The notes below the pieces were generated by a model. It saw only the letters and a list, made by a program, of their open reading frames with translations, made no database searches and was not told where the DNA came from. A DNA stretch of 64,000 nucleotides from Escherichia coli (GTDB taxonomy: Bacteria; Pseudomonadota; Gammaproteobacteria; Enterobacterales; Enterobacteriaceae): the NCBI RefSeq assembly GCF_013315695.1, contig NZ_CP054355.1; one strand, 5' to 3'. This document shows positions 9,866 to 13,569 of this stretch, one piece after another; position 1 is the stretch's first letter, and each line of letters opens with the position of its first letter. Both the position numbers and the translations under genes were made by a program.

Positions 9866-9919
9866 TGAACCGCCCCGGGAATCCTGGAGACTAAACTTCC
9901 TGAGAAAGAGGTAAACAGG

Positions 9920-10246
9920 ATGACTAAAAATACTCGTTTTTCCCCCGAAGTCCGTCAACGGGCAGTCCGTATGGTTCTGGAAAGTCAGGGCGAATATGAC
10001 TCACAATGGGCGACAATTTGTTCCATTGCCCCAAAGATTGGCTGTACACCGGAGACTCTGCGTGTCTGGGTACGCCAGCATGAGCGGAATACCGGAGGCG
10101 GTGATGGCGGGCTCACCACCGCTGAACGTCAGCGTCTGAAAGAGCTGGAACGTGAAAATCGTGAACTGCGCCGCAGTAACGATATCCTTCGCCAGGCTTC
10201 CGCTTATTTTGCGAAGGCGGAGTTCGACCGCCTCTGGAAAAAGTGA
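9920..10246 (+). CDS. IS629 transposase OrfA
   Basis: [19 protein letters not shown]... HTH/leucine-zipper OrfA of the IS3 family. Confidence 0.8.
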
Positions 10247-11133
10247 TGCCACTGCTGGATAAGCTGCGTAAGCTGTACGGGGTCGGACCGGTATGCAGTG
10301 AACTACATATTGCCCCGTCAACGTATTACCACTGTCAGCAACAGCGACATCATCCTGATAAACGCAGTGCCCGTGCGCAGCGCGATGACTGGCTGAAGAA
10401 AGAGATACTGCGCGTATACGATGGGAATCATCAGGTATACGGTGTGCGTAAAGTCTGGCGTCAGTTGTTACGGGAAGGAATCAGGGTAGCCAGATGTACA
10501 GTGGCGCGCCTCATGGCGGTTATGGGACTTGCCGGTGTTCTCCGGGGTAAAAAGGTCCGCACTACCGTCAGCCGGAAAGCCGTTGCCGCAGGCGACCGCG
10601 TAAACCGTCAGTTTGTGGCAGAACGTCCTGACCAGTTGTGGGTGGCTGATTTTACTTACGTCAGCACATGGCAGGGGGTCGTCTATGTGGCGTTCATCAT
10701 TGATGTGTTTGCCGGATACATCGTGGGGTGGCGGGTCTCATCGTCTATGGAAACGACATTCGTGTTGGATGCTCTGGAGCAGGCGTTATGGGCCCGTCGA
10801 CCGTCCGGCACGGTCCATCACAGTGATAAAGGTTCTCAGTATGTATCGCTGGCCTACACACAGCGGCTTAAGGAAGCCGGATTACTGGCATCAACAGGAA
10901 GTACAGGCGACTCGTATGACAACGCGATGGCGGAGAACATCAATGGTCTTTACAAAGCGGAGGTAATACACCGTAAGAGCTGGAAAAACCGTGCAGAAGT
11001 GGAACTGGCCACACTCACGTGGGTGGACTGGTATAACAATCGACGATTGCTGGAAAGGCTGGGCCATACTCCTCCGGCAGAAGCAGAAAAAGCTTATTAT
11101 GCTTCCATCGGAAACGATGATCTGGCAGCCTGA
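10243..11133 (+). CDS. IS629 transposase OrfB (DDE catalytic domain)
   Basis: IS3-family OrfB overlapping orfA in the -1 frame. Confidence 0.8.
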
Positions 11134-11175
11134 GTTCACAGATAAAACACTCTCCAGGAAACCCGGGGCGGTTCA

Positions 11176-11738
11176 CTTGGACTTAAATAGCTATAAACGT
11201 TTGTTGAATGGATGTATTTAGCGATAAAATCAGTATAAAAACCGTTATCAAAGAAGATGGACGTATACCCACCCAGACCATAGCTTTTAGTATCGCCATA
11301 ATAGCTGCCGCTCAGCTCTGCATTGGTACTTGTATGGGTAAATATTAAGCCAGTGTATAGCATTGCTGATTCAATTCTTATGCCTTTGTCTGCACCGAGT
11401 TGCAGGTGGTTGTATGTATTCTGATAACCGTCAGTGCCACTCCCCTGACCGAGCATATAGCGTCCCCAGACCCCGGCTTCTCCACTGTCGCGAATGTCCC
11501 CCATACGTTTATTGAGGTTATTCATTTCTGTAGAGAAAAGGCGGTAGCTGCTATTAGCAAAACTGGCCGCCGTACTGACTGCTTTTTTATCAGGCTCTGA
11601 GTTAAAGCCAATAATTGCCAGATTTGTACCGTTACCGTTATCACTAGTACCAAGTATCGGTGTTACGTTACTGAGCCCCGTTTTCTGGCTTATTGCCGAG
11701 AACATACTGAAATCGGTACCATCCGGTGCTTCAATTAG
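11176..11738 (-). pseudogene. autotransporter beta-barrel domain fragment trapped between IS629 and IS5
   Basis: Gly/Tyr/Ser-rich beta-strand-like sequence ending in aromatic residue; both ends cut by IS elements. Confidence 0.35.
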
Positions 11739-12934
11739 GGAAGGTGCGAACAAGTTCCTGATATGAGATCATCATATTCATCCGGAGCGCATCCCAGAGG
11801 GACATCATGAGCCATCAACTCACCTTCGCCGATAGTGAATTCAGCACTAAGCGCCGTCAGACCCGAAAAGAGATTTTCCTCTCCCGCATGGAGCAGATTC
11901 TGCCATGGCAGAATATGACCGCTGTCATCGAGCCGTTTTATCCCAAGGCGGGCAATGGCCGACGGCCCTATCCGCTGGAGACCATGCTGCGTATTCACTG
12001 CATGCAGCATTGGTACAACCTGAGCGACGGTGCCATGGAAGATGCCCTGTACGAAATCGCCTCCATGCGCCTGTTTGCCCGATTATCCCTGGATAGCGCC
12101 CTGCCGGATCGCACCACCATCATGAATTTCCGCCACCTGCTCGAGCAGCATCAACTGGCCCGTCAATTGTTCAAGACCATCAATCGCTGGCTGGCCGAAG
12201 CAGGCGTCATGATGACCCAAGGCACTTTGGTGGATGCCACCATCATTGAGGCACCCAGCTCTACCAAGAACAAAGAGCAGCAACGCGATCCGGAGATGCA
12301 TCAGACCAAGAAAGGCAATCAGTGGCACTTTGGCATGAAGGCCCACATTGGTGTCGATGCCAAGAGTGGCCTGACCCACAGCCTAGTCACCACCGCGGCC
12401 AACGAGCATGACCTCAATCAGCTGGGTAATCTGCTTCATGGAGAGGAGCAATTTGTCTCAGCCGATGCCGGCTACCAAGGAGCGCCACAGCGCGAGGAGC
12501 TGGCCGAGGTGGATGTGGACTGGCTGATCGCCGAGCGTCCCGGCAAGGTAAAAACCTTGAAGCAGCATCCGCGCAAGAACAAAACGGCCATCAACATCGA
12601 ATACATGAAAGCCAGCATCCGTGCCAAGGTAGAGCACCCGTTTCGCATCATCAAGCGGCAGTTCGGCTTCGTGAAAGCCAGATACAAGGGGCTGCTGAAA
12701 AACGATAACCAACTGGCGATGTTATTCACCCTGGCCAACCTGTTTCGGGTGGACCAAATGATACGTCAGTGGGAGAGATCTCAGTAAAAACCGGAAATAA
12801 CACCAGAAATGGTGGAAAAAATAGCCTAAATAGGCTGATTCGATGTGTTTGCGGGACAAAAATCGGCCCAGATCCGCGAAATTTTAATCAACGAGTCAGC
12901 TTGGGAAGACATGACCTGCTTATTCGCACCTTCC
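11739..12934 (+). mobile_element. IS5-family element (IS5/ISKpn26-like), complete 1196 bp
   Basis: Ends ggaaggtgcgaa...ttcgcaccttcc; Ins5-type transposase inside. Confidence 0.8.
11807..12787 (+). CDS. IS5 transposase
   Basis: 326 aa, [12 protein letters not shown]... matches Ins5. Confidence 0.85.
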
Positions 12935-13569
12935 CTAAAGGCGTCTTTGGCTTCGGTCAGCGAACACTGCTGTTTTTCTTTGCAGGACGGTGAATCTTTG
13001 TAGTCCGTCATCTGCGCCAGCAGCTGATAGCTGTCGTCAAGCTGCATCTGGCTGCGCTCTTTTTCCATCGCCTGCACCGCTTTCTGGCTAAACGCCGCAG
13101 AGTCATCGGTGATCACCGGATTAAACGTTGGGTCCATCGTGCCCATTTTTTCCTGATGATGTACCGGAATGTCGCACCCAAGGAAAGCGCCGGTGATAAA
13201 GAATTGTGCCGTCGCAACGGTGCGTTGCAGACTGTTGGCATAGGTATATACCGTGTCCGGCGTCGGGCATTCGCCTGACGTGACCATCCCCAGCTCCGCC
13301 AGCCATTCTCGCATGTAGTGGCCCATATAAATTTCCAGCACACCGCCTTTCGTGGTGAGCTGCCCGCCGGGCACATCCCACTCCGGCCACTGATTCGGCG
13401 TGGACTGCTCCAGCACGCTGCCATTATTGGCCAACGGCGCGCGCAAGTTGTGTCGGCTCATCATCAACACTTGTTGCAGTTGATAACCTTCCGGCGTTGT
13501 CTGCGCTTGCGCGGCGGACGACAATAAAACAGCCCCTGCCACAGCGGCGGCGAGTATCAATTTTTTCAT
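12935..13569 (-). pseudogene. agp: glucose-1-phosphatase (histidine acid phosphatase) 5' fragment, truncated by IS5
   Basis: Signal peptide plus RHNLRAP (RHGxRxP) histidine acid phosphatase motif and Agp-like N-terminal sequence; reading frame runs into the IS5 end. Confidence 0.6.

Follow-up and report, generated by a model that had tools for sequence, protein, structure and literature searches.

The window, by which we mean the whole 64,000-nucleotide stretch analysed here (Escherichia coli, contig NZ_CP054355.1), belongs to an IncF virulence plasmid of the pUTI89 type, from extraintestinal E. coli. The locus under study is a short stretch of decayed mobile DNA lying between the cjrABC-senB module (cjrABC-like genes and senB upstream) and a Citrobacter-like iron-uptake segment (an FTR1/ABC iron operon downstream). 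It contains the following features:

9513-9865, minus strand: 3' terminal 353 bp of an IS91-family element (element end and last ~91-92 transposase codons), cut on its N-terminal side by IS629
9863-9865, no strand: IS629 left flank AAC, native IS91 sequence
9866-11175, plus strand: complete IS629/IS1203-group insertion sequence (IS3 family), 1310 bp, ends fixed by thousands of copies
11136-11753, minus strand: chimeric 205-aa ORF, the RefSeq 'autotransporter beta-barrel protein', delimited by comparing ORF coordinates with element ends
11176-11178, no strand: IS629 right flank CTT, native SPATE sequence (the intact gene at locus L003 reads ...ctttgtct/cttggattt)
11176-11738, minus strand: internal fragment (563 bp) of a SepA-like SPATE (serine protease autotransporter; S6 peptidase) gene, approximately codons 928-1114 of 1273
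11735-11738, no strand: ISKpn26 left flank TTAG, native SPATE sequence fitting YTAR (L003 reads ...caattag/tacaacagg)
11739-12934, plus strand: complete ISKpn26 (IS5 family), 1196 bp, ends fixed by other copies
12935-12938, no strand: ISKpn26 right flank CTAA, native agp sequence fitting YTAR (TTAG in the agp orientation, codons TTT AGC; alignments of E. coli, Citrobacter and Salmonella agp)
12935-13569, minus strand: 5' fragment (211 of 413 codons) of a Citrobacter-like agp homologue (histidine-type glucose-1-phosphatase)

The ends of the two insertion sequences were set empirically, by aligning unrelated copies from across E. coli genomes to queries carrying 100-bp flanks. Thousands of other copies fix the ends of both elements, some matches running a few bases further by chance. 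Copies of the first align from about 101 to 1410 of the query (window 9866-11175) and those of the second from about 101 to 1296 (window 11739-12934).

The first element had been named IS629 in the preliminary description, and its length, termini, ORFs and identity uphold this name at the level of the IS629/IS1203 group of the IS3 family. Its orfA (9920-10246, 108 aa) and orfB (10243-11133, 296 aa) are both open and overlap by 4 nt; Pfam recognizes HTH_Tnp_1 in the former and HTH_21 and rve in the latter, and the programmed frameshift of this pair is annotated by RefSeq in a twin plasmid. Both termini read TGAACCGCCCCGGG in inverted orientation, in keeping with the TG...CA ends and ~1.3 kb length of such elements. 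The 1310-bp length, the TGAACCGCCCCGGG termini, the overlapping orfA/orfB and the HTH and rve domains are common to IS629/IS1203 of O157:H7 and Shigella, but the window copy is only ~95% identical to the annotated IS1203 of O157:H7. It reaches 98.1% with the best other copy and 94-98% over the full length with many copies annotated as 'IS3 family', and its sequence alternates in blocks between two other variants (an A-B-A mosaic).

The second element had been called IS5. It does belong to the IS5 family, but the element itself is ISKpn26, being 99.3% identical to annotated ISKpn26 and ~91% to annotated IS5; at the sites that separate the two, it is ISKpn26-type at all but four. An open 326-aa DDE ORF (11807-12787; Pfam DDE_Tnp_1 and DUF772) encodes a transposase 2 aa apart from the typical annotated ISKpn26 enzyme, and both 16-bp terminal inverted repeats (GGAAGGTGCGAAYAAG) are present. 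ISKpn26 and IS5 have in common the 1196-bp length, the GGAAGGTGCGAA(C/T)AAG termini, the 326-aa DDE transposase and YTAR-type flanks; the window element has two flanks that differ from each other. Compared with a consensus of four copies, all eight of its differences are confined to positions 647-1173, the first 646 being free of them, a clustering that depends on four reference copies only and in which four of the eight sites fall in the non-coding right end, under weaker constraint.

With the ends fixed in this manner (element boundaries marked by a slash), the IS629 junctions read ...AAAAAC/TGAACCGCCCCGGG on the left and CCCGGGGCGGTTCA/CTTGGAC on the right, and those of ISKpn26 read ...CAATTAG/GGAAGGTGCGAACAAG and CTTATTCGCACCTTCC/CTAAAGG. 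The earlier statement that these flanks are not direct repeats is borne out by the copy-defined ends: none of three bases agrees between AAC and CTT, and the two of four that agree between TTAG and CTAA are the TA core common to every sampled flank. Boundary correction does not overturn it either, a scan of both elements with end shifts of up to 6 bp having found no abutting direct repeat of 3-9 bp at or next to the true ends. The 3-4 bp direct target duplication of the IS3 family is absent at the IS629 copy, also after end shifts, and the 4-bp direct duplication of the YTAR target is absent at ISKpn26, where TTAG and CTAA each fit YTAR but are different tetramers. On either side of IS629 there is a CTTAAA hexamer, 4 bp beyond the left end and 6 bp beyond the right; it was rejected as an IS629 duplication, its offset conflicting with the verified ends and its frequency being at about the chance level.

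The description of TTAG and CTAA as reverse complements is true as read but carries no information, because both tetramers are native, both fit YTAR, and YTAR is its own reverse complement. Tetramers of this type flank other ISKpn26/IS5 copies as well, the same pair being found there, and a signature of inversion was rejected on these grounds. Since the flanks of ISKpn26 are native YTAR-type sites in the SPATE gene and in agp, its junctions were made by transposase activity and not by random breakage. As for IS629, the 3-4 bp duplication is a property of the insertion event and not of the element. In O157:H7 genomes, duplications are found at 21 of 47 IS629 sites and are lacking at 26, more than half (PMC3271280), so that copies devoid of them are common there. 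Two of the six other IS629 copies sampled in this work have duplications, and perfect 4-bp duplications flank three of the six other ISKpn26/IS5 copies that we looked at.

The three gene fragments were compared with uninterrupted homologues, each of which continues differently from the window. The IS91-family fragment is 97.5% identical to an uninterrupted copy (L004) and 97.5-98.3% identical over the 353 bp to many copies; the homology ends exactly at the IS629 end, where the intact copy continues ...AAAAAC/TTCTCCGGG. Its other extremity is a genuine element end, many plasmid IS91 copies beginning at the identical left end (query position 447, window 9513). RefSeq annotates it in a twin plasmid as 'IS91 family transposase, missing N-terminus'. 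With only the last ~91 codons left, the C-terminal tail gives no Pfam match, to a rolling-circle (HUH/Y2) transposase domain or to any other, and its identity comes from the nucleotide match to IS91-annotated genes.

An autotransporter fragment had been placed between the two insertion sequences; the fragment is indeed there, but it is internal, with both ends cut, and the annotated ORF is chimeric. It lacks 927 codons on its 5' side and is 99.3-99.5% identical to an intact gene (L003, 6523-10344, minus strand) encoding a 1273-aa S6 peptidase closest to SepA and EatA, which continues past both sides of the 563 bp. The Pfam Autotransporter beta-domain is matched at profile positions 1-94 of 255 only and, judged by the S6 protease domain, the passenger beta-helix and the complete 12-strand barrel of a SPATE, the fragment is a gene remnant and not a member protein. 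The gene's own stop is missing, the true gene running 478 nt further on the 3' side in L003; the 205-aa ORF starts inside ISKpn26, crosses the SPATE fragment and stops inside IS629.

To the right of ISKpn26, the reported truncation of agp is confirmed, but the gene is Citrobacter-like and not E. coli's own: the fragment is only 81% identical to E. coli agp in nucleotides, and its best match is that of Citrobacter braakii and C. youngae (91% amino-acid identity). Only 211 codons of a full-length ~413-aa Agp, a histidine acid phosphatase of branch 2, are left (Pfam His_Phos_2, profile positions 1-160 of 354), and the reading frame continues into ISKpn26, where the intact agp of E. coli and Citrobacter continue ...TTTAG/CGCGAA for 202 further codons. 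From this fragment, as its first gene, a captured chromosomal segment runs rightward. Window 13692-18000 shows synteny with what lies upstream of agp on chromosomes of the Citrobacter amalonaticus group, and the agp side is 81-86% identical in nucleotides to Citrobacter chromosomes, with homology that reaches the last base before ISKpn26. A protein search with the N-terminal 211 aa returned no full-length close relative of the plasmid fragment, the 99-100% matches all entering the IS, and F-type plasmids lack the C-terminal half of Agp. These flanks of different origin and the absence of duplications support the view that both elements join unrelated fragments and are not simple insertions.

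The arrangement is fixed in a plasmid lineage. Window 9000-14000 is common to at least 68 complete genomes at 99.7% identity or more, and pUTI89/pRS218-type cjrABC-senB F plasmids have a module order and junctions identical to those of the window, which diverges from its closest plasmid after ~23 kb. The published PCR primers for pRS218_023, 'glucose-1-phosphatase', match exactly at window 12830-12851 and 13120-13140, and the amplicon spans the agp-ISKpn26 junction; the pRS218 paper counts glucose-1-phosphatase among virulence-related genes, whereas the gene in the window is a fragment. In other plasmids, the identical ISKpn26-agp junction is retained with the left portion of ISKpn26 overwritten by other elements. 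It follows that this junction is the older one and has spread further, being found at 855 plasmid places as compared with 128 records of the SPATE piece. Its identity across hundreds of plasmids could make it a single-origin lineage marker.

A related but distinct situation is found in the enteroinvasive E. coli invasion plasmid p152661_pINV (CP046677.1), in which a senB flank of 99.6% identity leads into the end of an IS91-family element. There, this end is interrupted by an IS629 lying 14-18 bp from the window site and also devoid of a duplication, but this IS629 belongs to a different variant (94.6%) and is inserted in the opposite orientation; the IS91 copy, at 88% identity, goes on beyond IS629, with no SPATE fragment in its place. 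The 3' end of this IS91-family element may possibly be a preferred IS629 target, because two IS629 variants lie at most 18 bp apart, in opposite orientations, in pUTI89-type and pINV plasmids.

Partner junctions were sought with queries combining 30-nt element ends and 100-150-nt flanks, 60-nt ends being swamped by truncated IS629 copies. Neither the SPATE sequence ending in CTT joined to the left end of IS629, nor the right end of IS629 joined to AAC and the rest of IS91 (TTCTCCGGG...), nor the right end of ISKpn26 joined to TTAG and the rest of the SPATE gene (TACAACAGG...) was found in 5,426 complete E. coli genomes and the 72,556 plasmids of PLSDB. The absence of a reciprocal junction from the genomes and plasmids searched indicates that the partner DNA is lost. 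Two candidates were rejected: NZ_CP025850.1, in which IS629 lies ~190 bp outside the IS91 element, and, as the partner of the CTT flank, a second SPATE 3' fragment carried by sister plasmids (overlapping window 11176-11300), which is uninterrupted across the IS629 site and is a separate gene copy. No plasmid was found to carry an intermediate state, with IS629 or ISKpn26 simply inserted in the SPATE gene, in IS91 or in agp between matching duplications, nor did our literature searches find a published dissection of these IS629/ISKpn26 junctions.

The model we favour, and hold to be very probable, is an IS-driven rearrangement in which the DNA neighbouring each element was replaced, most probably by recombination between two copies or else by deletion. 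Each element would first have entered its site by normal transposition, ISKpn26 at a YTAR site of the SPATE gene, of agp or of both genes, and IS629 in the IS91-family element, in the SPATE gene or in both. A later step would have replaced the DNA lying to one side of each element, most probably by homologous recombination between two of its copies located in different genes or replicons; the single hybrid copy thus left behind would have its left flank from one insertion and its right flank from the other. Alternatively, this step would be the deletion of DNA adjoining a single copy. Either route would remove the matching duplication, truncate the neighbouring genes and discard the partner halves. 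We infer the order of events, and the preference for recombination over deletion, from a sequence that in itself fits both routes. The variant patterns inside IS629 (A-B-A) and ISKpn26 (positions 647-1173) hint at exchange between copies, with the qualification that the IS629 mosaic is unlike the simple left/right hybrid of a single crossover and could reflect the comparison copies; no intermediate with a matching duplication was found that would bear out recombination between two copies.

Deletion from a single copy, in which one IS end attacks a nearby target, or a process of the excision-enhancer type operates, and the stretch between is lost, is a possible but rather unlikely origin of the junctions. 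It predicts what is observed, namely the missing duplication, the truncated neighbours and partner halves lost everywhere; for ISKpn26 it also predicts a YTAR site at the new flank, where one is indeed present, and IS629-associated deletions have been noted in O157 (PMC3271280). The hints of exchange inside both copies argue against it, as does the second SPATE fragment of the sister plasmids, whose overlap with 11176-11300 implies two SPATE copies in the ancestry and fits recombination between replicons. Furthermore, IS3-family elements move by means of a copy-out, paste-in circle and normally do not delete the adjacent donor DNA.

That both elements are simple insertions whose duplications were hidden by misplaced ends or erased by point mutation is a general possibility to which the CTTAAA hexamer near both IS629 flanks lends some appearance, but it is highly improbable: thousands of independent copies agree on the ends, the hexamer is offset by 4 and 6 bp, the flanks come from three unrelated genes that each continue differently in intact relatives, and erasure would require substitutions at three of three positions for IS629 and two of four for ISKpn26. 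Insertion sequences are classic sites of mis-assembly, but an artefact of contigs mis-joined at these repeats is scarcely credible, given that the identical 5-kb arrangement recurs in at least 68 complete genomes, sequenced independently and coming from several countries, and that derived forms exist with further insertions within the same IS629.

In the IS-driven rearrangement that we favour, the agp side has a further implication, since it points to a Citrobacter-like chromosomal source of the plasmid iron-uptake segment. It is conceivable, though somewhat short of an even chance, that an ISKpn26 inserted in a Citrobacter-like agp carried the adjacent ABC-transporter/TlpA/FTR1 iron-uptake segment onto an F plasmid, the present junction being the fossil boundary of this capture.

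In conclusion, the junctions are the product of ordinary IS-driven decay in a mosaic plasmid, a scar of an already known kind with no function of its own, and their significance is small except for annotation hygiene and for the history of the plasmid. The 'autotransporter' ORF, the 74-aa 'hypothetical protein' and the 'glucose-1-phosphatase' are remnants or chimeric frames that should not be counted as virulence genes, and the published pRS218_023 PCR marker in fact amplifies the agp-ISKpn26 junction. On the other hand, the junctions could serve as stable single-origin markers for tracing pUTI89/senB-type F plasmids, and both elements, whose transposase genes are open as read from the sequence, could drive further rearrangement of these plasmids.

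The ends of the two elements were set by querying each, with 100 bp of flank per side, against 5,426 complete E. coli genomes. Alignments to unrelated copies span query positions 101-1410 for the first element and 101-1296 for the second, which gives the following arrangement:

9513-9865, terminal 353 bp of an IS91-family element
9866-11175 (1310 bp), IS629/IS1203-group element
11176-11738, fragment of a serine-protease autotransporter (SPATE) gene
11739-12934 (1196 bp), ISKpn26
12935-13569, first 211 residues of an Agp homologue

Both elements are intact in structure: the first carries orfA (108 aa, HTH_Tnp_1) and orfB (296 aa, HTH_21 and rve), which overlap, and the second carries one 326-aa DDE_Tnp_1 transposase. 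The first, about 95% identical to the IS1203 of O157:H7 and 98.1% to its best other copy, belongs to the IS629/IS1203 group. The second had been named IS5 in the preliminary description; that name is rejected, the identity being about 91% to IS5 versus 99.3% to ISKpn26. At these ends the flanking bases are AAC|CTT for IS629 and TTAG|CTAA for ISKpn26, as first described, and the direct repeats that a boundary correction might have revealed do not appear: among all end shifts of 6 bp or less, none yields abutting direct repeats at or next to the true ends.

The comparison with uninterrupted IS91, SPATE and agp homologues bears out the earlier claim that the elements separate unrelated fragments, each of which continues differently in its intact relatives. 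The left end of the IS91-family remnant, at 9513, is common to many plasmid copies, and the intact copy of locus L004 runs through the IS629 junction (...CATCTTAAAAAAC|TTCTCCGGGATG...). A near-ancestral view of the IS91/senB side is given by CP046677.1, an invasion plasmid of enteroinvasive E. coli (870-2640, compared with window 9511-9866), in which, after a senB flank that shares 99.6% identity with window 8494-9270, an IS91-family end is broken by IS629 within 14-18 bp of the window's site and the IS91 element resumes past it. This IS629 is a different variant (94.6%) in the opposite orientation, with no duplication either; IS629 may have a local hot spot here, in the 3' part of the IS91-family element that lies downstream of senB. 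The same plasmid is devoid of window stretch 9271-9512, which contains, between senB and the IS91 remnant, a solitary 38-bp Tn3-type terminal inverted repeat (GAGGGCTGACGCTCAGTGGAACGAAAACTCACGTTAAG, 9340-9377, 2 mismatches to the Tn3 repeat), a further relic of the same decayed zone. In a plasmid sub-lineage (NZ_CP061207.1, 4333-9341), the window's IS629 copy has been struck by ISEc10 of the IS21 family and also by a group II intron with reverse transcriptase, an ongoing build-up of mobile DNA at this spot.

The SPATE fragment is 99.3-99.5% identical to the internal part of an intact gene for a 1273-aa S6-family peptidase, whose closest relatives are SepA and EatA. Two loci outside the window bear on its history:

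pAST198_1 6523..10344 (L003), minus strand, intact S6-family peptidase gene
NZ_CP069461.1 and NZ_CP173439.1 4670-5272 (sister plasmids), second SPATE remnant

The intact gene continues for 478 nt past the IS629 junction to its stop and for 927 codons past the ISKpn26 junction to its start, and of the 255-position profile of the autotransporter barrel the fragment matches only positions 1-94. The 205-aa RefSeq ORF is chimeric, since the gene is cut at both sides and the ORF starts inside ISKpn26 and stops inside IS629. The true 3' end of the SPATE gene is found in some sister plasmids as the second remnant, which crosses the IS629 site unbroken, overlaps window 11176-11300 at 99.2% and is cut by another IS3-family element beginning TGAAGTGGCACACTGAATTTGG. 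Given this overlap, it comes from a second gene copy; two SPATE copies were thus once present in the plasmid lineage, which suggests a past replicon fusion.

On the right, the frame of the Agp homologue enters ISKpn26 after residue 211. The fragment shares only 81% nucleotide identity with E. coli chromosomal agp; its best matches, at 91% amino-acid identity, are those of Citrobacter braakii and C. youngae. In the Citrobacter amalonaticus group, two permeases, an ABC ATPase, TlpA and a 162-aa protein are encoded upstream of agp, and window 13692-18000 keeps synteny with these genes (81-83% nucleotide identity), apart from two additional genes lying in between. By this identity and synteny, the right flank of ISKpn26 is the edge of a chromosomal segment of likely Citrobacter-like origin, the donor itself being absent from the collection. 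The published PCR primers for pRS218_023 'glucose-1-phosphatase', a gene reported as far commoner in meningitis than in faecal isolates, match window 12830-13140 exactly; one lies inside ISKpn26, so what the marker reports is the junction of agp with ISKpn26 rather than a complete phosphatase gene. The 74-aa 'hypothetical protein' of the RefSeq twins (12769-12993), which starts in the right end of ISKpn26 and continues on the agp antisense strand, is almost certainly a junction annotation artefact.

The ISKpn26 site reads ...CAATTAG|TACAAC... in the intact SPATE gene and ...TTTAG|CGCGAA... in intact agp genes, so both tetramers, the left TTAG and the right CTAA (read as TTAG along agp), are native. 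Each matches YTAR, the target pattern of the IS5 family. That the two tetramers are reverse complements, as had been pointed out, is real but uninformative on mechanism: since the reverse complement of YTAR is again YTAR, two independent targets will often stand in this relation, with an expected frequency of about one in four under equal use of the four tetramers. Among six other ISKpn26/IS5 copies, three have perfect 4-bp duplications (CTAA, TTAG, CTAA), two have TTAG|CTAA (chromosomal, in other E. coli) and one has TTAA|CTAA; mismatched flanks are not rare on chromosomes either.

Recombination between two copies should leave reciprocal junctions, provided that both products survive. Three were sought with 100-150 nt of missing flank plus 30 nt of element end. 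The SPATE...CTT + IS629 left end, IS629 right end + AAC + rest of IS91, and ISKpn26 right end + TTAG + rest of SPATE junctions were not found in the 5,426 E. coli genomes or in 72,556 PLSDB plasmids; the searches turned up just three SPATE genes and many IS91 copies, all intact; tblastn found no Agp C-terminal half on F-type plasmids. The partner halves are lost. The agp fragment occurs at ≥99% identity in 855 plasmid places and the SPATE fragment in 128 records, and plasmids without the SPATE piece retain the ISKpn26 right end and agp junction, the left part being overwritten by Tn3-family or other elements. From this wider spread and retention, the ISKpn26-agp junction looks older.

At every junction the element end is genuine, as are the target-type sites that flank ISKpn26; the flanking sequences are unrelated to one another, and their partner DNA has been lost. 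As proposed earlier, neither element is a simple insertion in its present context. Both elements would have inserted in the ordinary way and one side of each would later have been exchanged, either by homologous recombination between two copies of one element, which we favour at an about even chance, or by deletion beside a single copy, which we consider less likely. IS3-family transposition proceeds via a copied-out circle and does not normally delete donor flanks; this mechanism, the two SPATE copies in the ancestry and the uneven internal variation of both elements favour recombination. Within the IS629 copy, blocks of two other variants alternate in an A-B-A mosaic; the ISKpn26 copy has eight differences from a four-copy consensus, all of them within positions 647-1173. 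These last hints of exchange are weak, because the mosaic is no simple two-part hybrid and, of the ISKpn26 differences, half are in the non-coding end, which is under less constraint.

The plasmid is of the pUTI89/pRS218 type of F virulence plasmid. Window 9000-14000 is matched at ≥99.7% identity by 68 complete E. coli genomes, on plasmids of 85-145 kb from extraintestinal isolates of humans and dogs. The closest record, NZ_LR898875.1, is collinear over the first 23 kb, with the annotated order ChaN-like, TonB-like and TonB-dependent receptor genes (cjrABC-type), senB, IS91-family remnant, IS3-family element, 'autotransporter beta-barrel' ORF, ISKpn26, truncated histidine-type phosphatase and ABC/TlpA/FTR1 iron-uptake operon. 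Elsewhere in the window, a Tn3-family transposon without cargo (24688-28562, 3875 bp; 995-aa transposase, 220-aa resolvase) has perfect 48-bp inverted repeats at both ends, flanks GATCT / TGCTA with no 5-bp duplication, an IS26 remnant (24318-24688) adjoining its left end, and 99.9%-identical copies elsewhere, including one on a chromosome. At 41820-41960, close to the 3' end of traD (assigned by position), the 9-bp unit TGGCTGTTG stands in about 15 tandem copies, read on the coding strand as CAACAGCCA (Gln-Gln-Pro); the overlap of BLAST blocks there makes the copy number seem unlike that of the closest plasmid.

In conclusion, where mosaic plasmids are joined, insertion sequences that lack duplications are a textbook sign of IS-driven rearrangement. 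Two of six other IS629 copies examined here have duplications, and in O157:H7 genomes Rump et al. (PMC3271280) reported them at just 21 of 47 IS629 sites. The region had already been sequenced and annotated, and the preliminary description read it correctly; the useful by-products are the annotation corrections and the likely Citrobacter-like origin of the segment that starts at the agp fragment.
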